Below, one piece after another: positions 3,429-22,647 of a DNA stretch of 64,000 nucleotides (the stretch's first letter is position 1; each line of letters starts with the position of its first letter). Source of the DNA: an uncultured Gemmatimonadota bacterium (GTDB lineage Bacteria; JAAXHH01); assembly GCA_951812955.1 (NCBI GenBank), contig OX638340.1:2688001-2752000 (forward strand). Reading direction: 5' to 3'. Made by a program: the position numbers and the translations under genes. The notes under the pieces were generated by a model that was not told where the DNA came from, did not search any database, and saw only the letters and a program-made list of their open reading frames with translations.

Positions 3429-4433
3429 TTGCCAATCTGGAGCGAAATCCTTAAAGAGTTGACACCGACACAAAATGGACTTCCAGTTGATTTTGATGGC
3501 GTTCGAAGGAAATATCTACTGAAACTCCATCAGCACACGGAACGGAATGTAATTCTGTACGCCTCAGGATGGCTTCAAGGGGAAGCCCCTCCTGCGCTTG
3601 TTTCAATAAATGATGAAGACATACAGGCGTTCATGGAAGTTAGTCACGGTCTACATGGAGATCAGCTCGATCTGATCCTACATAGCCCCGGAGGTTTTCC
3701 CGAAGCAGCCGAAGCGATCGTTGCGTATCTGAGGTCTCGATTTTCTCATATAAGAGTAATTGTTCCACAACTCGCAATGTCGGCAGCAACTATGATAGCA
3801 TGTGCTGCCGATAAGATCGTGTTAGGCAAGCATTCATTTCTCGGTCCTACTGATCCTCAGATAATGCTGGCAACCCCTCTAGGTGTGCGTTCAGTACCGG
3901 CTCAGTCTGTCCTGGATCAGTTTGATCGGGCCAAGAAGGAATGTTCCGACCCAGCCAAATTGTCGGCTTGGTTACCGATGTTAAGTCAATATGGTCCGGA
4001 TTTACTGGTTCAATGTGAGACCGCGTTAGAAATGTCTAAAGTGCTAGTGAAGTCTTGGTTGGAATCGTACATGTTTAAAGGGATGGATGATCGTAAATCA
4101 AGGGCGGAAAACGTCTCGACGTGGCTCGCTGATCACATGGAGTTCAAAAGCCACAGTCGACACATACCACGCGAAGAACTTGAAGACCACCAGTTGTCGA
4201 TATCTAGGTTGGAAGAAGATACGATATTGCAGGACATGAGCCTTTCAGTGTTTCATGCAACTACTCATACCTTTTCCGGCACCCCCGCTGTAAAGATCGT
4301 CGAGAACCATACAGGTCGTGCATTCATAAAACAAAATGTTACTCAACCGGTGCAGGTTGCCATGCAGCCAGTCCAGTCGATAGAAGTTGCACCAGTACCA
4401 CTAGTAATGCCCGAACATAGTGCCGATAGTTGA
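3429..4433 (+). CDS. SDH-family (serine dehydrogenase proteinase, S49/ClpP-fold) serine peptidase
   Basis: Motifs ILYASGWLQG, LILHSPGGFPEAAEAIVAYLRS and AMSAATMIACAADKIVLGKHSFLGPTDPQ are typical of the ClpP-fold SDH/S49 family. TTG start with GGGAG upstream. Low GC. Confidence 0.65.
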   Translation: MPIWSEILKELTPTQNGLPVDFDGVRRKYLLKLHQHTERNVILYASGWLQGEAPPALVSINDEDIQAFMEVSHGLHGDQLDLILHSPGGFPEAAEAIVAYLRSRFSHIRVIVPQLAMSAATMIACAADKIVLGKHSFLGPTDPQIMLATPLGVRSVPAQSVLDQFDRAKKECSDPAKLSAWLPMLSQYGPDLLVQCETALEMSKVLVKSWLESYMFKGMDDRKSRAENVSTWLADHMEFKSHSRHIPREELEDHQLSISRLEEDTILQDMSLSVFHATTHTFSGTPAVKIVENHTGRAFIKQNVTQPVQVAMQPVQSIEVAPVPLVMPEHSADS

Positions 4434-5142: not shown

Positions 5143-7545
5143 CTAATGCTCGCGCCGCAGCGCGTCCACCGGGTTCATCGTGGCGGCCTGAAGGGTCTGG
5201 GTACTCACCGTGATCCAGGCGATGAGCAGTCCGAGCAGGCCCGCGGCGGGGAACAACAGCAGCGAGATCTCGGTGTGATAGGCGTACTGCCGAAGCCACT
5301 GCTGCGTGACGAAGTAGGCCGCTGGCCAGGCGATGACGTTCGCAATTACCACGAGGATGGTGTATTCCCTTGAAAGTAGCAAGACGAGTTGCCGCGCCGA
5401 CGCGCCCAGGGCCTTCCGGATTCCCACCTCCCTGGTGCGCTGTTTCGCCGTGAAGACCGCAAGGCCGAACAGTCCGAGGCACGCCGTAAAGACCGCCAGC
5501 CCGGCAAACATGGTGACGAGCCGTCCCAGCAACTGATCCGAACGATACAGGCGTTCCACGTCCTGGTCGAGGAACGAATATACGAAGGGGATATCCGGCG
5601 TGGACGCCTTCCACATGGCTTCCAGGTCCCTCAAGGTTCCGCCGGGATCGCCGGGAACGAACCGCACGGCCCAGTAGCCGGAACCCCCGAAGGTGAAGAT
5701 TACCGGATCGATCCGCTCGTGGAGGCTCCTGAGGTGGAAGTCGCCCACCACCCCGACGACCTGCATCTCGCTGTTCCCCATTTTTACGAACTGATCCATG
5801 GCTTCTTCGGGCGATCCCCATCCCAGTCGACGGACCGCCTCCTCGTTCAGGAGACTTCCGGTCGATCTCCCCCATCCTCCTCCATCTGGGTCCTCGACCC
5901 ATTCGAAATCTCTTTCAAAGGATATGTCGCGTCCGACAAGCGACTCGAGCCCGAGCGTCCGTACAAGACCGCCCTCGGTATGGATGTGTTGCATCTCGAC
6001 CGTCCCCGCCGCCGGGTCGTCTACGCGGCCCACGGGCAGGATCGGCAGTCTCCCCCGGCCGGCCGCTCGTCCGGGCATGTAGTTCGCCCCGGCAACGCTG
6101 ACTACCCCGGCGTGCTGTGGGTAACGATCACGGATCATGTCGAAGTCCATGCCCTCGAGGTCGGGCAGGATCACCACGTGTTCCTTCTCGAATCCCAGGT
6201 GTTTCTCCCGCATGTACTCCAGCTGCTGGTAGACGGTTCCCGTGCCGAACATCAGCAGGATGGCCAGGGAGAATTGCATGACCACGAGGGCTTTTCGCAG
6301 GGTTGCGGCGCCGGTACCCGAAAGTCCGCGAAAGATCGCAACGGGACTGATCCGGGACAGCAGCAGGGCGGGGTAGGCGCCGGCGAGGACGCCCGCCGTG
6401 AGGATAATAGCCGTGCCGCCCAGAATTGACCACGGTTCGAGCGAAGGCATGGAAAGTACGTGGCCCGTCATGGACCGGAAGAGGGGCAGGACCACCCAGA
6501 CAGCGGCCAGGGCGACGAGGAACGCCACGGCACTCAGGAGTATGGTTTCACCCAGGAACTGGCGGCCGATCTGGCTTCTGGTGGCTCCTGAGACTTTGCG
6601 CATGCCGATTTCCCGGGCCCGGGAGATGGACCGGACAATCGCCAGATTCGTGAAATTCATGCAGGCAATCAGCAGGATGAAGACCGCGATGGCGATCAGC
6701 ATCCAGATGAAAGACACTTCGCCGTTTGCCTCCATCTCCAATTCCAGTTGAGAATGCAGATGGATATCGAAAAGCGGCTGCAATTCATAGGTGTGGGTAA
6801 AGGCCGTCGCCCGGACCGATGCGTCGACATGTTCCGTGAGCCGTGTCTGCAGCAGGTTGCCTATCTGTTCGGGCGAGACGCCGAGCGGCAGGAGCAGGTA
6901 GGTGTAGTACGCGCTGTTCGCCCAGTTTCTCAAAAGACCGATAGGATCGCCGCGTCCGGTCGTCGTGGCGATGGAGACGTAGAAATCGGGATGATAGTGG
7001 GCGTAAGGCGGTGGGTCTTCCATGATGGCGGTGATCGTGAAGGGAAACAGGTGGTCACCGGTGATCGTCTTGCCGATCGGGTCGGCGTCCCCGAAATACT
7101 TGCGGGCCATGGATGCGCTGATGACCATCGTATTCGGCGCCGTGAGCGCGGAGGAAGGGTTGCCGCGCACCAGGGAGACATCGAAGACTTCGAAGAGGTT
7201 GCCATCCGCCCAGTAGACCCGTTGCTCATAGAACTGCTTGTCTTCGGTGGTGAAAAGCCAGGTCCCCACGGTCGCCCGAAGGCGGAGCACTTGCTCCACT
7301 TCGGGAAGCTGCGTACCGATGAAGTCGCCCAGAATGCCGGGCGTCCGCGCCGTGCGATCCGTGACGACCCGGTATATACGGTCGCCGCGGGAGTTGTGCC
7401 GGTCGTAGCTCAACTCGTCGCGGATGTACAGCAGGATGACCAGGCAGCAGGCCATGCCGATGGCGAACCCGATGACGTTGATCGCGGCGTGGGACCTGGA
7501 CGAGAGTACGTTCCGCCAGGCGGTTAGGAGGTAGTGTCCGATCAT
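5143..7545 (-). CDS. ABC transporter permease, FtsX/MacB-like, with two FtsX domains (800 aa)
   Basis: N-terminal TM followed by a MacB-type periplasmic domain and repeated FtsX 4-TM modules. Typical 800-aa standalone permease. Confidence 0.8.
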   Translation of the reverse strand: MIGHYLLTAWRNVLSSRSHAAINVIGFAIGMACCLVILLYIRDELSYDRHNSRGDRIYRVVTDRTARTPGILGDFIGTQLPEVEQVLRLRATVGTWLFTTEDKQFYEQRVYWADGNLFEVFDVSLVRGNPSSALTAPNTMVISASMARKYFGDADPIGKTITGDHLFPFTITAIMEDPPPYAHYHPDFYVSIATTTGRGDPIGLLRNWANSAYYTYLLLPLGVSPEQIGNLLQTRLTEHVDASVRATAFTHTYELQPLFDIHLHSQLELEMEANGEVSFIWMLIAIAVFILLIACMNFTNLAIVRSISRAREIGMRKVSGATRSQIGRQFLGETILLSAVAFLVALAAVWVVLPLFRSMTGHVLSMPSLEPWSILGGTAIILTAGVLAGAYPALLLSRISPVAIFRGLSGTGAATLRKALVVMQFSLAILLMFGTGTVYQQLEYMREKHLGFEKEHVVILPDLEGMDFDMIRDRYPQHAGVVSVAGANYMPGRAAGRGRLPILPVGRVDDPAAGTVEMQHIHTEGGLVRTLGLESLVGRDISFERDFEWVEDPDGGGWGRSTGSLLNEEAVRRLGWGSPEEAMDQFVKMGNSEMQVVGVVGDFHLRSLHERIDPVIFTFGGSGYWAVRFVPGDPGGTLRDLEAMWKASTPDIPFVYSFLDQDVERLYRSDQLLGRLVTMFAGLAVFTACLGLFGLAVFTAKQRTREVGIRKALGASARQLVLLLSREYTILVVIANVIAWPAAYFVTQQWLRQYAYHTEISLLLFPAAGLLGLLIAWITVSTQTLQAATMNPVDALRREH

Positions 7546-7671
7546 GGGTGATGCCGCCGCAGTGAGGAATGCTGCCGGGAAAACAGCCAGGGGTCCCTCA
7601 AGATACCAACGACACAGCCGGAATGTCCACCAGTTTGCGGTGCTGGAAGCCGCCGGGAGGCCAGGGCTCGC

Positions 7672-8778
7672 TTAAGGCGCCAGCCTGTTCCAGTGGACGT
7701 CCATGGCCGTTTCGGTACCCGCGTAGTACACCACCAGGACCGTGCCGTCGGGCAGGGCTTCCGCATAGGGCAGGCCGAAGGACCACACCGAGAAGCCCAG
7801 GGCGCCCTTGGGATCTTCCTTAGGCGCCTCGTGGGTATACAGGGTCACCTCGGTTTCCGGATCGAACGTCCCGTCGATGGAAGGCGCGACGCGGGCCTTG
7901 ATGGACTGGTCGTGGAAGCGGTCCACCCACGGCAGGACGATGCGTCCGTCCGGCAGCACCGCGGGATGGGCCGCCTGGTCGGTGACGCCGATGTCTTCCG
8001 GCGCGGACCAGGTTCGCCCGCCGTCGGAGCTGACGCGGCGGTGAATGTTCAGGTAGGATTCCGTTTCGGTGTTGTAGGTCCAGGCGAACGCACCGATTCT
8101 GCCGTCCGGCGCCACGGCCGACCGCAGATCCCAGTTGTAGATCAGGCCCGTCGGATCGAACCCGATGTTCACCGGTTCACCCCAGGTCCTTCCCCCGTCC
8201 GTGGAGTGAAATGCGACGACCCGCTGGTACCATTTCGAGGTGTCGAGGTAGTGCTTGTTGGTTTCGATGGTCATGACCAGGGCGCCGTCCGGAAGTTGCA
8301 TGATTGGATTGGTCAGGCTCGCCGGTCCAATCTCCTCCGGCATGGGTACCTCGCGCCACGCCGTCCAGGTTTTTCCCCCGTCCGCGGAGTCCGCCAGGAG
8401 GATGGACATGGGCACGCAGCCCTCGGTCTCCGGATTGAAGAGTCCCGGGGCGTCAGGATAGGTTTCGCGGTCGATCCACATTGATGCGGCGATGATCCGT
8501 CCGGGCGCCAGTTCAGTCAGGTAGACGATCTTGACCGTCCCCCGGACTCCGTGAAGCGTTGGGCTTCCGAAGGGGCGTTCGGGTGCGCTCCAGGTCTTTC
8601 CGAGATCGGAGGAGCGGCTGAGTTCCACCACTTCGTCCGCGCAGTCCTTCGTCGTGCCGCTGTGCCAGGTGGCGATCAGCGTGCCGTCGGTCTTGCTAAG
8701 GACTGAGGGGAACGTGAGATTGGCCCGGTCCGTGCCGGGCGTGCTGCGGCTGAGGACGCCGGAGTCGACGATGCGCAT
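7672..8778 (-). CDS. BNR/Asp-box repeat glycoside hydrolase, sialidase-like
   Basis: Four SxDxGxTW Asp-box motifs (SSDLGKTWS, SADGGKTWT, STDGGRTWG, SSDGGRTWS). Confidence 0.7.
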   Translation of the reverse strand: MRIVDSGVLSRSTPGTDRANLTFPSVLSKTDGTLIATWHSGTTKDCADEVVELSRSSDLGKTWSAPERPFGSPTLHGVRGTVKIVYLTELAPGRIIAASMWIDRETYPDAPGLFNPETEGCVPMSILLADSADGGKTWTAWREVPMPEEIGPASLTNPIMQLPDGALVMTIETNKHYLDTSKWYQRVVAFHSTDGGRTWGEPVNIGFDPTGLIYNWDLRSAVAPDGRIGAFAWTYNTETESYLNIHRRVSSDGGRTWSAPEDIGVTDQAAHPAVLPDGRIVLPWVDRFHDQSIKARVAPSIDGTFDPETEVTLYTHEAPKEDPKGALGFSVWSFGLPYAEALPDGTVLVVYYAGTETAMDVHWNRLAP

Positions 8779-10951: not shown

Positions 10952-12907
10952 TTAGAAGAACTGGAGTTCGTGTATTGACCCTCGAAAATACCAGAAGTCC
11001 ACCAGGATCGCAACGGCGGCGCCGAGGACATAGCCTACCATGATGCCGATCATCAGCGGCTGGACAGCCTGGTAGAGGCGTACACCGCCTACCCTGATCA
11101 GTATGGTTTTCAACAGCCAGGCCAGAAAGACGGGAAAGAATGCGTTGCGCGCGGGACCGCCGGCGGCCACCACGAAACCGATAGGCGAAATGGGCCACCA
11201 GCTGAAGTAATAGCGGGCAACGCTCATACCCGTGACCATGGCCATGCCCACGACCAGGAAGAACACCTCCGCACCCGAAATGGTGGTACTGTTCTGCATC
11301 CAGGTTATGATCAAGTTATAGAAACCGGGGTCTCCGGCGATATTGTTGTAGTAATTCGCCGCACCGCCCAGCCGGTATCCGGAATAGGCCGAAAAACCGA
11401 TGGCCGTAATCGAGCTGACGACGAAGGTGACCGATGCCCAGAAGAACAGGACCCGTCCGGAGACGCCGAGTATGGACTGCATCCGCGCGACGTGGGAGGG
11501 GATGATCATCGTAAAGGTCTTCCAGTTGCGTGCAAAAGCGCTTCCCAAGCCCAGGGCCGTCAGGTTCTGCGGCGACAGTGAGGCGGAGCCCAGCATGCCC
11601 ACAGTAAACTGGTGGGCGTTGATGGGCAGGTCCAGGAAGACCAGCCCCGATTCCGCCATCACGCGGCACAGTGCGAAGTAGAAGAGGAAAAGCAGGACGA
11701 GAAAGACGGCGATCACCGGGAAGGACATGCCGATCACGTGCAGCCACCAGGAGATATAGGCCATGCCGCAGACGCCCGTGACCAGGGCCGCCCGGTAGGA
11801 AATGAACTCGTCTTCGTCGCGCAGGTTCGTTTCGTGTCCCCGTACGTGGCGCCACACCATCGCCAGGTGCCGCCGCGCGATCCAGAAACCCCAGAGCGCG
11901 AAGGCGATCATGCCCCCGATGAACTGCACGGCGACCAGTCCGCCCGGTATGGCCGTACCCGAGGCTGCGACAACGCCGACCCGGGCCAGGATGCCCTGCT
12001 GTAGCGTATTGATGATCTGGAACAGCCACACGCTGAAAAGGATATCCACGTTGATGAAGTAGGAGAAGGCAAAGGTGAGGACGTTCATTCGGATTGGATG
12101 CGCCGGAAAAGCATGTCCGAAATTAACGCTGAGCACGGTGCTCGCGTCGACGGGAAAGGACGACCACTGGGTCCAGTATGATGCGGTGTTCCAGAGCATG
12201 ATGGAGAAGGTGACCACCGCGCCGGTGATGAACATGCGGTTTCGCATGATCGTCGGCAGGACGGCGTCCGGCTCATCCTTCGTTTCCGTCATGACGACCG
12301 GCGCCTGGACGAGGGGATAGGAAAGCCGCTCGTGCTCGACCCACTGCCTGCGCATCAGGATGACGAAGCAGATGCCCACGGCCAGGAGGCCGCCAAAGAA
12401 AGACAGCCACCAGAACGACGGAATGATCCAGGCCGCCCAGGGGATCGGCATGCTTTCTGGTAGGCCCCAGTAATAGTCCCGGTTCGCGTTCTGTTCGTTC
12501 GTGACGATGAGCCAGTCGGGCAGATAGGCGAAGAACATCTCGCGCCACTGGTTCTCGGGCGACGCGAAGTATTCCGCCGTGGCCATCACGTTCACGACGT
12601 AGTTGGACATGCCCCAGGTCGGCACCATGAAACCGACCCAGCCAAGTACGAAAACGAAGAGTACTTCTTTGTCCCGCAATCCCAATGACGGACGGATCGC
12701 CTTGACCAGCAGGTTGGGACCCAGGACACCCAGCAGGAAGGGAATCAGCAGGGCGAGATCTATGTGGGCGAAGGTAAGGTGCACATACCCCAGGTGGTAG
12801 TTGCTCGACACGGAGAAAAGATTGACGACGACGGCCAGGGCCAGGCCCGCCGCCACCGCCCGGGGCGTTACCACCTTCGAGGAGGTTCTTTGTTCCAGTT
12901 CGCTCAT
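10952..12907 (-). CDS. Uncharacterised polytopic membrane protein (651 aa), paralog A of a tandem pair
   Basis: At least 12 predicted TM segments. Conserved blocks (NANRDYYWGLP, FSYFINVDILFSVWLFQIINTL, YYFSWWPISPIGFVVAAGGP) are shared with the downstream paralog. Confidence 0.7.
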   Translation of the reverse strand: MSELEQRTSSKVVTPRAVAAGLALAVVVNLFSVSSNYHLGYVHLTFAHIDLALLIPFLLGVLGPNLLVKAIRPSLGLRDKEVLFVFVLGWVGFMVPTWGMSNYVVNVMATAEYFASPENQWREMFFAYLPDWLIVTNEQNANRDYYWGLPESMPIPWAAWIIPSFWWLSFFGGLLAVGICFVILMRRQWVEHERLSYPLVQAPVVMTETKDEPDAVLPTIMRNRMFITGAVVTFSIMLWNTASYWTQWSSFPVDASTVLSVNFGHAFPAHPIRMNVLTFAFSYFINVDILFSVWLFQIINTLQQGILARVGVVAASGTAIPGGLVAVQFIGGMIAFALWGFWIARRHLAMVWRHVRGHETNLRDEDEFISYRAALVTGVCGMAYISWWLHVIGMSFPVIAVFLVLLFLFYFALCRVMAESGLVFLDLPINAHQFTVGMLGSASLSPQNLTALGLGSAFARNWKTFTMIIPSHVARMQSILGVSGRVLFFWASVTFVVSSITAIGFSAYSGYRLGGAANYYNNIAGDPGFYNLIITWMQNSTTISGAEVFFLVVGMAMVTGMSVARYYFSWWPISPIGFVVAAGGPARNAFFPVFLAWLLKTILIRVGGVRLYQAVQPLMIGIMVGYVLGAAVAILVDFWYFRGSIHELQFF

Positions 12908-12997: not shown

Positions 12998-14953
12998 TCA
13001 AAAGGAATGGGGATTATGAACGGCTCCGGGAAAATACAGCAGATCGGCCAGGATAGCAATGGAAGCGCCAAGGACGTAGCCCACGAGGATGCCGATCATC
13101 AACGGCTGAACGGCATGGTATAGCCGCACGCCGCCTGCCCTGATCAGGATGGTTTTCAACAGCCAGGCGAGAAGGACCGGGAAGAAGGCGTTGCGGGGCG
13201 GACCGCCGGCCGCTACCACGAAGCCGATGGGTGAAATGGGCCACCAACTGAAGTAGTAACGGCATACAGTCATTCCCAGGACCATCGCCATGCCCGCGAT
13301 CAGAAAGAACACCTCGGAACCGGAAATCGTCGTGTTGTTCTTCATCCAGCTGATGATCAGGTCGTAGAATCCGGGGTTACCTGCGATATCAGCGTAGAAG
13401 TTCGACGCGCCGCCGAGCCGGTATCCGGAATAGGCTGTGAAGCCTACGGCGGAAATCGCGCTGAGGGAGAAGGCGACGGCGCTCCAGAAGAACAGTGTGC
13501 GCCCTTCGACGCCAATCACCGATCTCAGCCGCGCGACGTGGGACGGTATGATCATGGGAAAGGTCTTCCAGTTGCGCGCGAAAGCGCTTCCCAGGCCCAA
13601 CGCCGACAGGTTCCGGGGTGAAAGCGAAGCGGAGCCCAGCATGGCGACGGTAAACTGGTGGGCGTTAACGGGAAGGTCCAGGAAGACCAGTCCGGATTCC
13701 GCCATTACGCGGCAGAAGGCGAAGTAGAATAGGAACAGCACCGTCAGAAACGCGGCGATCACCGGAAAGGACATGCCCACGGCGTGCAACCACCACACGA
13801 TGTAGGCCATGCCGCACGCCCCGGTGATCACGGCCGTCCGGTAGGAGAAGAACTCGTCCTCGTCACGCAGGTTCGTGGCGCCTCCCAGCACATGGCGCCA
13901 CACAGTCCCCAGGTGCCGCCGCGCGATCCAGATCCCCCAGAGCGCGAAGGCGATCATCCCGCCGATGAACTGGACTGTGACCAGCCCTCCAGGTACGGCG
14001 GTTCCTGAATCTGCGATGATGCCGAGCCGGGCCAGGACGCCTTGCTCCAGCGTGTTGATGATCTGGAAGAGCCATACGCTGAACAGGATGTCCACGTTGA
14101 TGAAGTAGGAGAATGCGAAGGTAAGGACGTTCATGCGAATGATTTGAACCGGGAAGGCGCGGCCGATCTCGATATTGATCAGGAACTTCGTATCGATGGG
14201 AAAGGACGTCCATTGCGTCCAGTATGACACCGTGTTCCAGAGCATGAGGGAAAACGTGATGATAGCGCCGGTGATGAACAGCCGGTTGCGCATGATCGAC
14301 GGCAGGACCGAATCCGTTTCGTCGTCCGCATCCGTCATGACGACCGCCGTCTGCGCGAGGGGATAGGAAAGGCGCTCGTGCTCGGCCCATTGCCGGCGCA
14401 TCAGGACGACATAGCAGAGGCCGACGGCTAGCAGGCCGGCGAAAAAGGAAAACCACCAGAACACGGGAATGATCCACGCCGCCCAGGGAATCGGAGCGCC
14501 GGCAGGAAGACCCCAGTAGTAGTCCCGGTTCGCGTTCTGTTCGTTCCTGATAATTACCCAGTCCGGGAGAAAGGGGAAAATCAGTTCGCGCCACTGGTTC
14601 TCGGGCGTGGCGTAGTATTCCGCCGTGGCCATCATGCCGACCAGGTAGTTCGACATGCCATAGGTGGGTACCATGAAACCGATCCAGCCCAGGACGAAGA
14701 CGAACAGGAGTTCCTTGTTTCGCAGTCCCCACGACGGATTAATCGCCTTGACCAGGATATTGGGGCCAAGTACGCCCAGGAAGAAAGGGATCAGCAGGCC
14801 GAGGTCGATATGGGCGAAGGTGAGATGGGTAAACCCGACGAGATAACTGGTCGACACCGACAGGATGTTGACCGCGACGGCCAGCGCCAGACCCATGATT
14901 ATGGCCCGGGGGGTCGCTGCGCGCGGGCTGGACGGGTCGACCGTATCGGTCAT
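12998..14953 (-). CDS. Uncharacterised polytopic membrane protein (651 aa), paralog B
   Basis: Collinear with paralog A over its full length at roughly 70% identity. Confidence 0.7.
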   Translation of the reverse strand: MTDTVDPSSPRAATPRAIIMGLALAVAVNILSVSTSYLVGFTHLTFAHIDLGLLIPFFLGVLGPNILVKAINPSWGLRNKELLFVFVLGWIGFMVPTYGMSNYLVGMMATAEYYATPENQWRELIFPFLPDWVIIRNEQNANRDYYWGLPAGAPIPWAAWIIPVFWWFSFFAGLLAVGLCYVVLMRRQWAEHERLSYPLAQTAVVMTDADDETDSVLPSIMRNRLFITGAIITFSLMLWNTVSYWTQWTSFPIDTKFLINIEIGRAFPVQIIRMNVLTFAFSYFINVDILFSVWLFQIINTLEQGVLARLGIIADSGTAVPGGLVTVQFIGGMIAFALWGIWIARRHLGTVWRHVLGGATNLRDEDEFFSYRTAVITGACGMAYIVWWLHAVGMSFPVIAAFLTVLFLFYFAFCRVMAESGLVFLDLPVNAHQFTVAMLGSASLSPRNLSALGLGSAFARNWKTFPMIIPSHVARLRSVIGVEGRTLFFWSAVAFSLSAISAVGFTAYSGYRLGGASNFYADIAGNPGFYDLIISWMKNNTTISGSEVFFLIAGMAMVLGMTVCRYYFSWWPISPIGFVVAAGGPPRNAFFPVLLAWLLKTILIRAGGVRLYHAVQPLMIGILVGYVLGASIAILADLLYFPGAVHNPHSF

Positions 14954-16523: not shown

Positions 16524-17819
16524 CTAGTTGCCCAGGACCGGTTGGACGCGCAATTCAAGCAGGCCATGGGCCCTTCGAAGCACTTGTTCCACCTGGCCGG
16601 GTTGATCTCCTCGTGCGAATATGAAACCGGGGTAACTGGCGCCTTCGGGAAGCGGAGTCAGCAGGTCGCCTTCCTTTGCGGTGATTACCACGTCTTCCAC
16701 GCCCGGAACCTTCTTCGCCGTTTCGACACCGTCGTATCGCAGAAACTGTCCGCTTTCCGGAACGGGCAGCATCATCACGCCCGCGGCCTTCGTCTGCCCG
16801 GTACTTCGCCCGAAGTCCGTCGCGTCGAGACCTGTACCGCTCGTGTCCTGTCCCAGGGCGTGACGCAGGATGAGTTCCTCCAGGGACAGCCCGATTCCGA
16901 ACTCCAGGACGCGCGAGCAAAGCCCCCCGATGGATCGGCCGGCGATTTCAATGATCCTGGCCTCGCCGTGGTGGATGCGCAGTTCGGCGTGGACCGGACT
17001 CTCCGACAGGCCCACGGCCGTGGAAGCCCTTTGTACGGCTTCGGCTACGACCTTTTGCGTCTTGCCGGGCAAGCGCGAAGGCGTTATGTAAATCGACTCC
17101 TCGAAATAGGGCCCCTCCAGCGGATCGGGCTTGTCGAACAGCGCGAGCACGCGCAGCAGTCCGCCGGTCAGTAATCCCTCCAGGGCTACCTCTGCGCCTG
17201 GTATGTAGGATTCCACCATGATGCGTCGGGCGTCGGGATCGAGGCTCGGCGGCCTGTCCGTCGCGCTGTCGAGTAGGTGGCTGATTCTCCGGAATGCTTC
17301 TATAAAGCCTGATGGCGAGTCGGCCCGTATTACGCCCCGGCTGCCCGATAGCAGGACGGGTTTGAGCACACAGGGGTAAGGTTGCTCCAGCGCGATTTCC
17401 TCGACCGGGACCGACAGGTCGAACAGGGCGAAATACGGGTTCCATACCCCCGCGGACGAGAGCATTTCACGCATGCGGTACTTGTTGCGCGCGGCGACGG
17501 CCGCTTCGGGCGTGTTGTGCGGAAGGTCGAGGATCTGACATGCCCTGGCGGCGATCTCGGTGGTATAATCGTCGACTGGTACGATGGCATCGAGGGTATG
17601 ATCACGGGCGTAGGCCACGATTTCCTCCACGGCCTGCGACACGTATCTCAGCCGAAGCGACAGCGGGACGTCCCAAGCTTCCGCCAGCACGTGGCAGAAG
17701 TCCGAACCCACGACGACTTCAATGCCCATACGCCGCGCCGCAGCCAGAAACGGATCCGCGCGATAGGTCGTCGTCGGCATCAGGAGCAGTAGTTTTTTGG
17801 ACCGGGTCTCTGCTGGCAT
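16524..17819 (-). CDS. ATP-grasp domain protein (carboxylate-amine ligase-like)
   Basis: A pre-ATP-grasp fold followed by ATP-grasp fold features (VLKP, ESYIPG, EINPR-like). Confidence 0.65.
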   Translation of the reverse strand: MPAETRSKKLLLLMPTTTYRADPFLAAARRMGIEVVVGSDFCHVLAEAWDVPLSLRLRYVSQAVEEIVAYARDHTLDAIVPVDDYTTEIAARACQILDLPHNTPEAAVAARNKYRMREMLSSAGVWNPYFALFDLSVPVEEIALEQPYPCVLKPVLLSGSRGVIRADSPSGFIEAFRRISHLLDSATDRPPSLDPDARRIMVESYIPGAEVALEGLLTGGLLRVLALFDKPDPLEGPYFEESIYITPSRLPGKTQKVVAEAVQRASTAVGLSESPVHAELRIHHGEARIIEIAGRSIGGLCSRVLEFGIGLSLEELILRHALGQDTSGTGLDATDFGRSTGQTKAAGVMMLPVPESGQFLRYDGVETAKKVPGVEDVVITAKEGDLLTPLPEGASYPGFIFARGDQPGQVEQVLRRAHGLLELRVQPVLGN

Positions 17820-17911
17820 GGTTAGACTGGAAAATAGAAATTTTGTCGATCGAAATCAATGAAATCGCCCGCCCCGTCGAGATACCATACACAGGTATAG
17901 CGAAAAAAAAA

Positions 17912-17941
17912 CTTGCATACGCAATCGCGTAGAAAATATAT
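17912..17941 (+). promoter_or_regulatory. Candidate sigma70 promoter for hup (TTGCAT-18-TATATT)
   Basis: Reading of the AT-rich divergent region 118 nt upstream of the HU ATG. An imperfect palindrome tacgcaatcgcgta overlaps the spacer. Confidence 0.3.
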
Positions 17942-18058
17942 TGCACGTACATTTCGCTTAAATCACCCGCAGGCACGGGACCTTAGAACGGTCTGTCGCG
18001 GGAATTCTCGCACTCTATCGGGTGCATTACTCCCATTATTTCATCTGGAGGGTAATCA

Positions 18059-18331
18059 ATGAATCGCACAGAATTGGCCGGTAAGGTCGCTGATGCTACC
18101 GGGTTGTCCAAAGCGCAAGCCGATAGCGCGGTCGCCGCAGCACTCGACGCCATCAAGAGCAGTCTCAGTGACGGCGATTCCGTCACGCTGATCGGCTTCG
18201 GCACGTTCAGCGTATCGAATCGTGCTGCTCGCCAGGGGCGAAATCCCGGTACGGGAGAGTCCATTACGATCGCTGCGAGAAACGTGGCCAAGTTTACGGC
18301 GGGCAAGGCTTTAAAAGACGCCATAGGCTAA
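18059..18331 (+). CDS. hup: HU-family nucleoid-associated DNA-binding protein
   Basis: MNRTELAGKVADATGLSKAQADSAVAAALDAIKSSL...GFGTF...RNPGTGESITI is a canonical HU/IHF fold sequence. Confidence 0.9.
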   Translation: MNRTELAGKVADATGLSKAQADSAVAAALDAIKSSLSDGDSVTLIGFGTFSVSNRAARQGRNPGTGESITIAARNVAKFTAGKALKDAIG

Positions 18332-18342
18332 GAAAAGCTACG

Positions 18343-18375
18343 GGGCCCGTCCGGCCTCATCGGTCGGACAGGCCC
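18343..18375 (+). terminator. Hairpin downstream of hup (GGGCCCGTCCG/CGGACAGGCCC, one mismatch). No clean U-tract.
   Basis: Inverted repeat read directly. T-runs follow further downstream at 18459-18465 and 18496-18502. Confidence 0.3.
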
Positions 18376-18602
18376 TGTTGAACGGTACTCGGACAGCCGG
18401 GCCGGAGAGGCCTGCCGGAGCGAATAAAAGCTTCAGTCGCCCCGGTTAGTGACGATCTGCCTGTCCTTTTTTTAAACGGATCCTTGAATCGTTCGTTTTT
18501 TTGCCTTGCTAAGCACACGTGTGCATATCCGGCTCAGGTAGACTGCACGAACTCGTTAGCGTTCTGTCGCACCGACATCGAGAAGACAACTGGAGGATTG
18601 CC

Positions 18603-19262
18603 TTGCCGCTCTATGAATTCAACCTCACGGATTTTCTTTTTCCCGCGGATCTCCCGAACAACAAGGCCAATTTCCGCTTTGTTGTCGATCTGCGATTCAT
18701 AAATCATCGCAGTCAGTTTGCCACCGAACACGCCGTGATGCCTAGCCTCGACACGTTCTGGGAATGCGATACCGAACGGTCGGGAAAACCGAATTACGTT
18801 CGCGGCGCTGGAGAGGAAGCGTTGCGGATTGGCGATCTTCCGGCCGGCCGTTGCGGCCGTTTCGAGATGGCGGAGATTGACGATTGGGACAAACTCATTT
18901 TGCTGGTACGGGGGAAGCGTATCCATTCCATTCAATTCAAGGTATACGACGTGGATCGCAGAGATGCCTGGGACAAGATCAAGGATTTCCTGGCCGGGAT
19001 CGTCGAGGCCGTCGTCGGCAGAATCCGAGGGGCGGTCCCGGAGAACCTCCCCTTGCATCTGCCGGAATCCCTGGGCGGCGCGGCGGACGACCTGCAGTCC
19101 TTCCTGCTGAAAAAGATCGCGGGTGGCGACGCGGTCCTGTTCCGGGGATCTGCGAATCTTGCCGAGCTTTCCGGTGAAGGATCGACGCACCATACGGTGC
19201 ATGGCCGGGGAACCCGGGGAACGTACATGATCGGTTTCAGCCTGACCCAGCGGGATGGGTGA
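18603..19262 (+). CDS. Hypothetical protein (about 220 aa) with no recognisable domain. First gene of a two-gene operon with the metallophosphoesterase.
   Basis: TTG start at 18603 with a perfect GGAGG 6 nt upstream. The in-frame GTG at 18519 has no RBS. Varied amino-acid composition. The antisense 482-aa ORF 18534..19982 is the artefact. GC is intermediate (about 53-55%). Confidence 0.5.
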   Translation: MPLYEFNLTDFLFPADLPNNKANFRFVVDLRFINHRSQFATEHAVMPSLDTFWECDTERSGKPNYVRGAGEEALRIGDLPAGRCGRFEMAEIDDWDKLILLVRGKRIHSIQFKVYDVDRRDAWDKIKDFLAGIVEAVVGRIRGAVPENLPLHLPESLGGAADDLQSFLLKKIAGGDAVLFRGSANLAELSGEGSTHHTVHGRGTRGTYMIGFSLTQRDG

Positions 19263-19274
19263 ATCCATGCCGCC

Positions 19275-20651
19275 ATGCTGGTAATCGTCAGCGACCTGCA
19301 TTTGACGGACGGCACATCCGGCCGGACCATCAATGCGCATGCCTTTCGGTTGTTCGCCGACCGGGTTCGGGACATGGCCTTCGACGCCTCCTGGCGGCGC
19401 GGGGGTTCCTACCGGCCGGTCGAGCGCGTCGACATCCTCCTTCTGGGAGATATCCTGGACGTCATTCGCTCGACCCGGTGGCTTGAGACCGATCGCGGGA
19501 CGCGTCCCTGGAGCGACCCCGCGGACGTCCGGCTCGCCCGGAAGGTGAATGAAGTAACCGATGAGATCCTGAAGCACAATGCGCACGCGCTGTCTCATCT
19601 CGGGAACCTGGCGCGTCCCGGAGGCCTCCTGCTTTCTCCGCCCGGGGGAGCGAATGGGAACCCGAAGCATTCCGAGCCCGGCCTGCCGGTACGGATCGGC
19701 ATCCACTACATGGTCGGCAACCACGACTGGTTCTATCATTTGCCCGGCGCGGACTACCACCCTCTGAGGAGGAAGGTCTCGGACGCCCTGGGGCTGGAGA
19801 ACGACCCTGACGCGCCCTTCCCCCACGATCAGGAAGAATCGGCCCGACTCGACGGCATACTTCGTGATCACGGGGTCATCGCCCGCCATGGAGACGTCTT
19901 CGATCCCTTCAATTACTCCGGATCGAGGAACGAGCCGTCGCTGGGGGACGGCGTCGTCATAGAATTGGTGATCCGCTTCCACCGGGAGGTCCTCGCCCGC
20001 CTGGGATCACGAATGCCCCGGTCGTTCATCGACGGACTGCGGGAGATGGACAATGTCCGCCCCCTGGCAGCCGTTCCCGTCTGGATCGACGGCCTGTTAC
20101 GTAGTCACGGGGTGCCAGGAAGAGAGGCTCGCAAGGTAAAAGACACCTGGAACGACCTGGTCGACGCCTTCCTCGATCTGGATTTCATCCGGGGGCGGGA
20201 CGCTTACTTGAATCCCTTCGACAGCGTGGACCGGCTGGAATACGCGCTGAGGATCACGCGAGACATTCCGCTAGTCGCGGCGAGCGCGCTGGGCGCGTGG
20301 TGGAACGACCTGGCGAGTGGTCCAGGCGGCACGGACGAATCCTATCATGCCCACGCTGCCGGGGAAAAGGCGGTGCTGGACAGGGAGGCACGGCACGTGG
20401 TATACGGCCATACCCACCACTACGAAATCGTGCCCCTCGACGCCATGACGCGGGACGGCCGGCGATTCGAACAGGTCTACTTCAACGCGGGCACGTGGCG
20501 CAGGGTACATCGGCTCGCTCGTTCGTCCCGGCGCGGCCGGTCCTTTGTAGCCTACGACGTCATGACCTTCCTGACATTTTTCAAGGACGACGAACGCATG
20601 GGCCGCCCGTTCGCCTGCTGGTCGGGGACGCTGGGCGAGGCGCGCCGGTAG
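19275..20651 (+). CDS. Calcineurin-like metallophosphoesterase (458 aa) with large insertions between catalytic motifs
   Basis: Catalytic motifs IVSDLHLTDG (DxH), LLLGDILD (GDxxD), GNHD and VVYGHTHH are in canonical order. ATG lies 13 nt after the upstream stop. Confidence 0.75.
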   Translation: MLVIVSDLHLTDGTSGRTINAHAFRLFADRVRDMAFDASWRRGGSYRPVERVDILLLGDILDVIRSTRWLETDRGTRPWSDPADVRLARKVNEVTDEILKHNAHALSHLGNLARPGGLLLSPPGGANGNPKHSEPGLPVRIGIHYMVGNHDWFYHLPGADYHPLRRKVSDALGLENDPDAPFPHDQEESARLDGILRDHGVIARHGDVFDPFNYSGSRNEPSLGDGVVIELVIRFHREVLARLGSRMPRSFIDGLREMDNVRPLAAVPVWIDGLLRSHGVPGREARKVKDTWNDLVDAFLDLDFIRGRDAYLNPFDSVDRLEYALRITRDIPLVAASALGAWWNDLASGPGGTDESYHAHAAGEKAVLDREARHVVYGHTHHYEIVPLDAMTRDGRRFEQVYFNAGTWRRVHRLARSSRRGRSFVAYDVMTFLTFFKDDERMGRPFACWSGTLGEARR

Positions 20652-21300
20652 GACGGGATATGAGTATCAGAACCGCAATCCGAATCAAAGTCAACTGAGA
20701 TTGAACGACATAAACGAGTTACGGTCAGCAAAGAATAGTTTACCCTAACTGCTGATATTCGTACATTTTGTTGACGAGCATTTGACTCCAAGTTCTAACG
20801 ATACTTCGCATGCGATGCGTGTTTTTCAAACCAAAGATCGTGTTGGAAGTGTTATACTGAGTGAGGATACGTGTGAATTGCCGACGAGATTCCTGACAAA
20901 AACTTAATAGAATTTGGCCACAAAGGAGACTGTTATGTCTGAGGATAGACATACTTCCAGAGAGCAGAACGATATAGAAATCAAGAGTGTAAACGAAGAT
21001 TCGCCAGGAATCGAGACTATGCCCGATATTACCCCGGAGATGATTTCGCCAAATCCTCCCCAAAGCAACAGTGAGAACAACCAGCACGATCAAACAGGGT
21101 CATCAAATGTAGAAAGTGACTAAGATGTCGAGTTCAGTTCAGGCGATATAGAGTGGGTGCAATTGCACAAGAAAAAGTAACAAATAAAACTGTATTCAAC
21201 CGCTTGATTAGAATCCTTGTTAAGACTGGCAGCAGACCCTTTTCACTTGACTTGAAAGACCTCTCGCCCTACCATGGTGCAGTTGTTTAGGGAGATATCG
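20652..21300. other. AT-rich segment between the metallophosphoesterase operon and the tRNA genes
   Basis: Compositional shift to roughly 40-45% GC. Confidence 0.6.
20935..21123 (+). CDS. Small acidic, S/N/Q/P-rich hypothetical protein (62 aa)
   Basis: ATG preceded by AAAGGAG at 6 nt spacing. Composition is atypical for this genome. The track ORF begins at an upstream TTG (20914). Confidence 0.35.
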   Translation: MSEDRHTSREQNDIEIKSVNEDSPGIETMPDITPEMISPNPPQSNSENNQHDQTGSSNVESD

Positions 21301-21309
21301 GGAAGGTAT

Positions 21310-21396
21310 GCCGGGGTGGTGGAATTGGTAGACACAGGAGACTTAAAATCTCCCGGACCTCAATAGTCCGTGCCGGTTCGAGTCCGGCCCTCGGCA
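21310..21396 (+). tRNA. tRNA-Leu (anticodon UAA), type II with a long variable arm
   Basis: The cloverleaf was read manually. It has a GCCGGGG acceptor, an anticodon loop cuUAAaa, a long variable stem-loop and a GTTCGAGTC T-loop. Confidence 0.85.
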
Positions 21397-21435
21397 TTCG
21401 GGGTCGTGAACAAACTGGTGAATGCTGGATATGCA

Positions 21436-21509
21436 GGGCGCTTAGCTCAGATGGTTAGAGTGCCACGTTGACATCGTGGAGGTCAGTGGTTCGATCCCAC
21501 TAGCGCCCA
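21436..21509 (+). tRNA. tRNA-Val (anticodon GAC)
   Basis: Acceptor GGGCGCT/AGCGCCC, anticodon stem CCACG/CGTGG with loop TTGACAT, and T-loop GTTCGATCC. Confidence 0.8.
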
Positions 21510-21522
21510 TTCCGTTCCGAAC

Positions 21523-21553
21523 CAAGCAAATGCCCGGCCCTGGTCGCTCCGGC
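21523..21553 (+). terminator. Rho-independent terminator after the tRNA pair (CCCGGCC-11 nt loop-GGCCGGG followed by TTTCTT)
   Basis: Inverted repeat plus T-tract read directly. Confidence 0.5.
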
Positions 21554-21597
21554 CGGGTTTCTTAATTCCCCCTGCTCCTAAACCAGTTTGCTCCAGC

Positions 21598-22647
21598 ATG
21601 AAAATCACGGATATCAAGGCCGTCTACCCGGCATGGAAGAAAAAGGGGTCGGGCGCCTGGCAAGAGTATTACTGGCAGATCGTGGTCCGGGTGGAGACGG
21701 ACACCGGCGTCCTGGGGTACGGGTACGGCGGAGGCGGAGAACCCGGCAAACTGATCGTCAACGGTCATCTGCGCGATGCGCTGATTGGCAGGACGATCGG
21801 CAGCGTGGATGATATTCGCGACACCTGGGACCATCTCTACTTCAAATCCCTGCCGTACGGCCGCAATGGCATTGTGATCATGGCCCTCAGCGGAATCGAT
21901 CTGGCCCTGTGGGACCTGCTCGGTAAAACCGAAGGCAAGCCCGTATACGAGCTGATCGGGGGATTGAAGAAGGACAAGGTCCGTGCCTACGCGACAGGGG
22001 GCGACCCTGCACGGGTCCGCGACCTGGGCTATACGGCCGTAAAGCGCTCGCACAAGTGGCGGTCTGACGCCGACTACGACGTAGCCGCGGTCCAGGCGGC
22101 CCGGTGCAGGGAGCTGTTCGGTCCGGACGCGCTGCTCATGTTCGACTGCTACATGTCCTGGGATGCCTGGGTAGCCCTGCGGATGCGCGAAATCCTGGCC
22201 GAATACGAACCCTACTGGTTCGAGGATCTCATCACCCCCGACCATCTGGACGAACTGGCCGAACTCAGGCCGCGGCTGGCGCCTGTTCTACTGGCCGGCG
22301 GCGAGCACGATTTCTCCCACCATGCGTTCCGCGCCATTGCCCGCGCCGGCGCCCTGGACCTGTGGCAGCCCGATATCACCTGGTGCGGTGGAATAACGGC
22401 GGGGTTGCGCATCCTGGACCTGGCCAGATCGCAAGGGGTGCCTGTATGTCCCCATCGTGGGGGCGAAATCTGGGGGCTGCACCTAATCGCCGCGACGGAT
22501 TGCATGGATCTGGCGGAGACCCACCCGGATAGGCGGAACGATATGGACGGCTCGGTGCTGCTCGACGAGCCCGTGGTATCCGGCGGCGAGATCGCACCGG
22601 CTGACCGTCCGGGGTTCGGCGTCACGCTGAAACCGGCGTATTGCTAG
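21598..22647 (+). CDS. Enolase-superfamily enzyme (mandelate racemase/muconate lactonizing enzyme-like, probably an acid-sugar dehydratase)
   Basis: N-terminal capping domain followed by a TIM barrel. The conserved acid/base and metal-ligand segments are in place (GIDLALWDLLGK, FDCY, EDL, GEHD, WCGGIT). Confidence 0.8.
   Translation: MKITDIKAVYPAWKKKGSGAWQEYYWQIVVRVETDTGVLGYGYGGGGEPGKLIVNGHLRDALIGRTIGSVDDIRDTWDHLYFKSLPYGRNGIVIMALSGIDLALWDLLGKTEGKPVYELIGGLKKDKVRAYATGGDPARVRDLGYTAVKRSHKWRSDADYDVAAVQAARCRELFGPDALLMFDCYMSWDAWVALRMREILAEYEPYWFEDLITPDHLDELAELRPRLAPVLLAGGEHDFSHHAFRAIARAGALDLWQPDITWCGGITAGLRILDLARSQGVPVCPHRGGEIWGLHLIAATDCMDLAETHPDRRNDMDGSVLLDEPVVSGGEIAPADRPGFGVTLKPAYC

Follow-up and report, generated by a model that had tools for sequence, protein, structure and literature searches.

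A 64,000-nt stretch of the genome of an uncultured Gemmatimonadota bacterium (JAAXHH01; GCA_951812955.1, contig OX638340.1, positions 2,688,001-2,752,000), which we call the window and within which all unprefixed coordinates are counted, carries two adjacent genes just upstream of a tRNA-Leu/tRNA-Val pair. The first, gene A, encodes a protein that matches no family model, and the second, gene B, encodes a calcineurin-like metallophosphoesterase. An AT-rich segment with a small open reading frame (ORF) lies between them and the tRNAs. A first-pass annotation of the sequence had proposed that this unit was a candidate accessory or defence-type module. In our best reading A-B is a lineage-specific chromosomal operon of two otherwise independently distributed families rather than a conserved system; it is neither an anti-phage defence unit nor mobile, and gene B is neither a true LpxH nor a nuclease of the SbcD type.

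The A-B operon and its distribution

Gene A begins with TTG, replaced by GTG in two genomes, and a GGAG-type site is kept at the same spacing in all 16 of the syntenic relatives introduced below. The first-pass annotation had proposed this start with its perfect GGAGG, and was right in both; its length of 220 amino acids has to be corrected to 219. We rejected a GTG start at 18519, which yields a mechanical ORF of 247 amino acids, since homologues begin at a conserved MPxFEL. Because the TTG or GTG and the GGAG are kept in 16/16, the N-terminus is MPxFEL, and three relatives wholly lack an in-frame start codon further upstream, we place the start at TTG 18603. The ATG of gene B lies 13 nt past the last base of the gene A stop codon, leaving a spacer of 12 nt, and the relatives have 11-12 nt. 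Since this spacer recurs in all 16 relatives together with the conserved start and its GGAG, the two genes look like an operon, as had been proposed.

Genes A and B and the small ORF are conserved in relatives, and all three are under purifying selection. Measured against 14 relatives, the ratio of nonsynonymous to synonymous substitution rates (dN/dS) of gene A is 0.117, which matches the values of the neighbouring genes for an M32 peptidase (0.113), an enolase-family protein (0.132) and dihydroorotate dehydrogenase (0.124) and therefore marks gene A as a real, constrained gene. The earlier concern that it might prove non-conserved is answered by this value, by its 177 homologues (word-indexed search) and by the start kept in 16/16 relatives. 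Gene B is less constrained, with a dN of 0.217 against 0.09 for gene A and a dN/dS of 0.222.

The two families differ in size. When 1.84 billion representatives were searched exhaustively with a profile, the gene A family came to 165 clusters at 50% identity, almost all of them stand-alone proteins of 200-230 amino acids; they come from Gemmatimonadota, Acidobacteriota, Latescibacterota and a few other groups, and many are marine or sponge-associated. Gene B has more than 2276 homologues, in records labelled Gemmatimonadota, Acidobacteriota, Planctomycetota (Pirellulales) and Anaerolineae.

On the gene A side we fetched 60 genome loci, 16 of them syntenic and 44 distant (37-67% identity), the latter from other Gemmatimonadota, Latescibacterota, Vicinamibacterales, Bryobacterales, Thermoanaerobaculia, Ca. 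Palauibacter and Ca. Spongiihabitans. On the gene B side 84 loci were examined, with a gene A profile hidden Markov model (HMM) run against their six-frame translations. Adjacency of A and B is confined to the 16 syntenic genomes, which belong to one Gemmatimonadota lineage, and to a metagenome contig of the same lineage (L065; loci are numbered with an L), where gene A lies upstream of gene B at 74% identity. No gene B relative occurs within 8 kb of any of the distant gene A loci (0/44), and the profile HMM found gene A in none of the remaining gene B loci (0/83). Co-occurrence of the homologues across genomes, which the first-pass annotation had named as a check on its module, is thus limited to this one syntenic lineage. 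A 182-aa protein encoded upstream of an Anaerolineales gene B homologue was considered as a divergent gene A and rejected (hhalign probability 0.1%).

The 16 species-level genomes share the gene order DUF6785/DUF6784 membrane protein(s), M32 carboxypeptidase, ATP-grasp ligase, HU, A, B, a variable spacer, tRNA-Leu, tRNA-Val, enolase-superfamily enzyme and dihydroorotate dehydrogenase, and across them gene B identity ranges from 65 to 91% with the A-B spacing kept. The nearest public loci are metagenome-assembled genomes (MAGs) labelled Gemmatimonadetes or Gemmatimonadota, with matches over gene A of 98% in L001 (isolate APA_bin_41) and 97% in L013. Several of the relatives' MAG names suggest sponge or other marine sources.

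Gene B is intact in 14 of the 16 syntenic loci and degraded in the other two. It is reduced to two fragments in L002, while in L001 a deletion of about 2.2 kb leaves the first 20 codons of gene B running in frame into the small ORF at its codon 19 (L001:8673-8864). The 64-aa fusion product, P0256, keeps exactly the conserved core of the small protein, now under the A-B operon signals, and since it is recorded from three contigs we take it to be probably a genuine allele rather than an artefact of assembly. Gene A is intact in both genomes. The locus is thus variable among close relatives, as the first-pass annotation had asked, both in gene B and in the AT-rich piece, which is present, truncated or absent by genome.

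ORF clustering and a Pfam census of the immediate neighbours at the distant gene A loci found no metallophosphoesterase and no consistent partner; several early neighbour 'clusters' were discarded as alternative-frame artefacts of GC-rich DNA. The genes near gene A elsewhere encode patatin, FGE-sulfatase-domain and NHL-repeat proteins, TetR/TolC pairs, an HPF-like protein, transposases and small two-helix membrane proteins, and none of these associations is consistent across clades. In a Latescibacterota locus, L145, a patatin-like phospholipase gene (5529-7820) lies directly upstream of gene A (8001-8675). FGE-sulfatase-domain and NHL-repeat proteins appear repeatedly near distant homologues (L146:6467-7822; L147:9225-10127), and small two-helix membrane proteins stand beside gene A in L015, L016, L018, L022 and L042.

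Gene B homologues have other neighbours. In other phyla a conserved protein of about 385 amino acids is encoded directly 3' of gene B, on the same strand; it is found in 30 of the 66 loci with a downstream flank (for example L064:6526-7668). It carries the invariant motif W163-G164-H165-x-H167-x-G169-N170 (WGHSHAGN, lipase-elbow-like) and has no Pfam match and no meaningful PDB sequence match; the window encodes no homologue of it. GMC-oxidoreductase/alpha-beta-hydrolase genes occur near gene B homologues in 14 loci, and in L062 genes for a 4HBT thioesterase and an alpha/beta-hydrolase follow the gene B homologue.

Predicted structures of the two proteins

The gene A protein has no match in Pfam, NCBIfam or PADLOC, in line with the first-pass annotation, which had seen no domain in it, and its profile gave nothing meaningful against PDB sequences, so that no solved structure is matched by sequence. 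Its family shares the conserved blocks NFRFVVDLR, HAVMPSLDTFWEC, PNYVR and HSIQFKVxDVDRxDxWD and the invariant acidic residues D29, D50, E54, D116 and D124. An AF2 model built from 28 sequences has a C2-like beta-sandwich, a 55-residue helical or disordered insert (residues 120-175) and three extra C-terminal strands. In predicted fold gene A matches the C2 domains of synaptotagmin, myoferlin, cPLA2 and PKC (Pfam clan C2), although no Pfam C2 model matches it. It differs from them in standing alone as a bacterial protein instead of forming part of a larger enzyme, as well as in its insert and extra strands. The C2 fold is best known from eukaryotic membrane-targeting modules. As the protein carries no signal peptide, it is predicted to be a cytoplasmic stand-alone protein that is C2-like at the level of fold only. 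One other protein, P0365 (3107 aa, Listeria-Bacteroides repeat domains), has 19 matches to positions 86-122 of the gene A profile. These are probably a repeat or low-complexity coincidence, and we rejected P0365 as a domain fusion of gene A, as it is a repeat protein with no informative domain.

Gene B is a member of the calcineurin-like metallophosphoesterase superfamily on motifs, Pfam threshold and fold alike. The first-pass annotation had described a 458-aa protein with a full set of motifs and large insertions, and this reading holds: the five motifs (D7-x-H9, G58-D59-x-x-D62, G148-N149-H150-D151, H205 and G378-H379-T380-H381) are invariant in 30 aligned homologues, down to 49% identity. 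The match to Pfam Metallophos (PF00149) is weak, at 23.9 bits against a gathering cut-off of 21.5; no NCBIfam family was found at E up to 0.1, and the gene B profile gave nothing meaningful against PDB sequences. The confident model (predicted local distance difference test, pLDDT, 86; predicted TM score, pTM, 0.89) has a split beta core with two helical inserts, one at about residues 85-113 and a large one at about 223-347, which falls after motif IV (H205) and before motif V (H379/H381). Among structural matches LpxH (PDB 5b49) ranks first, and the JGI label 'LpxH' is carried by several gene B homologues.

In LpxH a helical insertion domain (residues 119-173) interrupts the catalytic domain and holds or buries the acyl chains of lipid X (PMC5016852). 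Gene B shares the two-metal calcineurin-like core with five motifs, likewise interrupted by a helical insertion domain, and its lack of a signal peptide is what one would expect of an enzyme that is cytoplasmic or peripheral to the membrane. It departs from LpxH in length (458 against about 240 amino acids), in its motif IV-V insertion (174 residues against about 81, with a helical block about three times larger), in the extra helical insert between motifs II and III and in failing sequence-level family membership, by NCBIfam and by hhalign.

We consider it highly improbable that gene B is the lineage's genuine UDP-2,3-diacylglucosamine pyrophosphatase, the LpxH isozyme of lipid A synthesis. 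The structural match and the JGI label on many homologues fit such an enzyme, as does a Lip_A_acyltrans gene in the window, from which we take it that the organism makes lipid A. However, the NCBIfam search was null, the hhalign similarity covers motif V only, and gene B is about twice as long as LpxH. Its deletion or degradation in two close relatives is unlike an indispensable lipid A enzyme, no lipid A genes adjoin it, and its family is also found in Anaerolineales bacteria. This suggests that the 'LpxH' labels on the gene B family, a large one of uncharacterised, double-sized LpxH-like phosphoesterases, are a mis-annotation.

Two further LpxH relatives bear comparison: LpxH2, for which no substrate is known, and PlcP, a phospholipase C-type metallophosphoesterase of phosphate-stress lipid remodelling that adjoins a glycosyltransferase (agt). 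No glycosyltransferase gene adjoins gene B in the window, and PlcP is a lead taken from the literature. A DNA repair nuclease of the SbcD/Mre11 type, which the first-pass annotation had named as a housekeeping role that would undo its proposal, earns scarcely any credence from us. Although the metallophosphoesterase fold is shared, such nucleases score below LpxH as fold matches, the helical insert of gene B occupies the LpxH lid position, where the nucleases have their capping domain, and no SbcC/Rad50-type ATPase gene adjoins gene B here or in the gene B loci examined.

Possible roles of the pair

We favour, with about even confidence, the reading that A-B is a lineage-restricted operon in which gene B acts on a hydrophobic, probably membrane-lipid, substrate and gene A is a possible membrane-binding accessory. 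The gene B enzyme would hydrolyse a phosphodiester or pyrophosphate bond of this substrate on the cytoplasmic side of the inner membrane, and the gene A protein, co-expressed with it in this lineage, would assist at the membrane. The lipid substrate is suggested by the LpxH architecture, by the hydrolase-rich gene B neighbourhoods and by the general role of C2 folds. Consistent with it, the neighbours of gene B elsewhere are ester and lipid-type hydrolases, and one distant gene A directly follows a patatin gene.

Several results weigh against this reading. The C2 assignment of gene A comes from the AF2 model, and a search of 28 aligned family members against Pfam at E up to 10 returned no C2 and no consistent family. 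The sequence similarity of gene B to LpxH is marginal, the gene B profile aligning with E. coli LpxH in hhalign at an E of 0.045 and a probability of 1.2%, over 55 columns around motif V, and the proposed lipid substrate derives from architecture and neighbours. To these we add the blank outcomes of both pairing searches and the survival of gene A where gene B was lost, by deletion in L001 and by degradation in L002. Because the two families are independently distributed and A survives without B, cooperation between them would be at best facultative and their adjacency could be incidental. Gene A clearly also works without gene B.

It is accordingly quite possible, though we would stop short of calling it probable, that A and B are functionally unrelated and merely co-transcribed here, with A having a membrane- or protein-binding role of its own and B being an independent accessory phosphoesterase. 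Both families overwhelmingly occur without each other, each has other recurrent neighbours elsewhere, and gene A, besides outlasting gene B, is under twice its constraint. Set against this are the spacing of 11-12 nt, kept across 16 species-level genomes whose gene B proteins have diverged to 65-91% identity, and the membrane-lipid connotations of both predicted folds.

A more ambitious version of the favoured lipid reading, which we think unlikely, is that A and B together are a bacterial equivalent, in two components, of eukaryotic C2-domain lipid hydrolases such as cPLA2, PLC and PLD. The gene A protein would then dock on the inner membrane, possibly in a calcium-dependent manner, and recruit or activate the LpxH-like gene B enzyme, which would cleave a phosphoester of a membrane lipid, for instance when sponge-associated Gemmatimonadota remodel their membranes. 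If this were true, the patatin-A adjacency in Latescibacterota would be another example of the principle.

Whichever role applies, the finding is mostly ordinary: two uncharacterised families of known superfamilies are juxtaposed in one lineage beside a decaying islet. Its value is one of annotation, and modest, in that it casts doubt on the 'LpxH' labels and delimits in gene A a small, well-constrained bacterial family for which there is no Pfam model.

The low-GC islet, the tRNA pair and the flanks

The features of the locus are collected in Table 1. The guanine-plus-cytosine (GC) content is 0.51-0.67 over genes A and B and 0.41-0.49 over roughly 20600-21350. The spacer between gene B and tRNA-Leu (20652-21308) measures 657 bp at 42.5% GC, which bears out the AT-rich stretch of about 650 bp, with a 62-aa acidic ORF, that the first-pass annotation had placed upstream of the tRNA pair. 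An Rfam scan of 17700-21700 found the two tRNAs and no other family.

Table 1. Features in and around the A-B unit, in window coordinates.
Feature	Position	Strand	Basis or remark
HU-type DNA-binding protein gene	18059..18331	+	Pfam Bac_DNA_binding, E 3.8e-32; upstream neighbour, outside the unit
Shine-Dalgarno GGAGG of gene A	18592..18596	+	Read from the sequence; 6 nt before TTG
Gene A, 219 aa, predicted C2-like beta-sandwich with insert at residues 120-175	18603..19262	+	
Gene B, 458-aa calcineurin-like metallophosphoesterase, LpxH-like architecture	19275..20651	+	
AT-rich leader of the small gene, left part of the low-GC islet	20652..20934	+	GC 0.41-0.49
Small gene, 62-aa acidic proline-rich protein	20935..21123	+	ATG start, AAGGAG upstream
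DUF6338 membrane-protein gene remnant	21125..21180	+	Comparison with full genes of relatives
Sigma-70-type promoter of the tRNA pair, TTGACT-17 nt-TACCAT	21247..21275	+	Consensus scan and alignment of relatives
tRNA-Leu(UAA)	21309..21397	+	ARAGORN; Rfam 55.6 bits; same place in 16/16 syntenic relatives
tRNA-Val(GAC)	21436..21509	+	ARAGORN; Rfam 66 bits; present in 16/16 syntenic relatives
Terminator-like hairpin and T-run, 3' of the tRNA pair	21539..21557	+	Consensus scan only

Gene B and tRNA-Leu lie between about 120 and about 1800 nt apart, depending on the relative. The roughly 70 nt just ahead of tRNA-Leu are conserved throughout, and the stretch of some 560 nt before them is found in certain relatives and missing from others. 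The leader of the small gene, for example, is kept in L065 (88%), L003 (76%) and L009, is absent in L013 and L019, and has no Rfam family. The small ORF is intact with its ribosome-binding site in eight relatives. The core RSVNEDSPGIETMP[DE]ITP[ED]M[IV]SP[ND]PP of its product is strictly conserved. Its family comprises 26 protein clusters, all within this lineage, and it gave nothing against Pfam, NCBIfam or PADLOC. The ratio of nonsynonymous to synonymous differences (pN/pS) is 0.15-0.5 for this ORF, with the exception of the comparison between the window and L065 (0.63).

In L005, L006, L007 and L009 the small ORF is followed directly, with an overlapping or adjacent start, by a full gene for a 204-aa protein (L005:10479-11093, L006:10456-11070, L007:10381-11052, L009:10508-11122) that matches Pfam DUF6338 (PF19865) at E 1e-15 to 1e-17. 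To our knowledge DUF6338 is a family without a known function. The window keeps 19 codons of this gene, the first eight (MSSSVQAI, from the ATG at 21125) and the last 11 (DIEWVQLHKKK, ending at 21180), joined by an internal deletion. L012, L002 and L003 have C-terminal DUF6338 pieces only, and L013, L019 and others have lost the whole low-GC islet. Because the relatives form this graded series, from full DUF6338 gene through C-terminal fragment to nothing, we read the AT-rich stretch as the decaying remnant of a low-GC two-gene cassette, encoding the small acidic protein and a DUF6338 membrane protein, that is unrelated to A and B. The islet is probably of foreign origin. Its erosion beside the tRNA promoter explains the small orphan ORF and the loss of gene B in some relatives, from which deletions spreading from the unstable AT-rich spacer would have removed gene B as well.

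We considered whether the AT-rich segment is a repeat or a mobile element and rejected this, since it is single-copy in the window and the DUF6338 protein of relatives has no phage match and no plasmid match. Also rejected was the ATP-grasp ligase encoded 3 kb upstream as a modifier of the small peptide: this L-amino-acid-ligase-type enzyme is encoded on the opposite strand and is found in 16/16 relatives, whereas the small ORF is found in only some. In L002 the spacer between gene B and the tRNAs contains an HTH-domain ORF and a transposase-like ORF (L002:9463-10628) that we read as IS630-like, in the same genome in which gene B is fragmented. A pair similar to this element (DDE_3 transposase) lies just downstream of gene A in L051.

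The proposal that A and B, perhaps with the AT-rich segment, make up a new accessory or anti-phage defence module inserted next to tRNA genes, in which B would be the effector phosphoesterase or nuclease, can be weighed on these grounds, and we judge it very unlikely. Gene B is polymorphic for presence among very close relatives, with an in-frame deletion allele on three contigs, the spacer beside the tRNAs is hypervariable, low in GC and in L002 the site of an IS630-like insertion, and metallophosphoesterase folds include nucleases, all of which would suit such a module. Yet PADLOC models (PADLOC-DB v2) gave no match for A, B, the small ORF (E up to 0.1), DUF6338 or any of the ten flanking ORFs (10.9-27.5 kb), and none of those ten is an integrase, transposase or phage gene. 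Housekeeping-type genes make up the flanks, among them the HU gene at 96-100% identity, and their order is fixed in 16/16 genomes; A and B do not co-occur outside one lineage. Gene A evolves like a core gene and has no plasmid match; gene B matches a single plasmid record, of 859 kb, and its closest fold is LpxH rather than a nuclease. As a candidate defence system, A-B does not hold up.

Adjacency to the tRNAs, taken by the first-pass annotation as a hint of an accessory module, is merely part of this lineage's synteny. The position of the A-B unit is upstream of the tRNA promoter rather than at the 3' end of a tRNA gene, and every aligned relative, even where the AT-rich islet is missing, has the same promoter columns without variation.

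Across the window as a whole, Pfam finds mostly housekeeping-type families. Outside 10.9-27.5 kb there are isolated PADLOC matches to DndA/SspA (E about 1e-160), mad3 (2e-31), mad8 (6e-12), TmtA and, weakly, AriA and an ATPase-Toprim; three class-V aminotransferase genes of the window may account for the DndA/SspA matches. Tandem 651-aa paralogues, probably two DUF6785/DUF6784 members, are encoded on the reverse strand (10952-12907 and 12998-14953); this duplication gives two tblastn matches in L001, L003, L009, L012 and L013 and a single one in the others. The ATP-grasp/L-amino-acid-ligase gene (16524-17819) is apparently split or truncated in L003:5636-7141, L011:6288-7280 and L012:6393-7275, and its relaxed constraint (dN/dS 0.227) indicates that it may be decaying. 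A 334-aa ORF at 3429-4433 (+) has a third-position GC content (GC3) of 0.43, against 0.7-0.84 for most window genes, and may be foreign or a mis-called frame.

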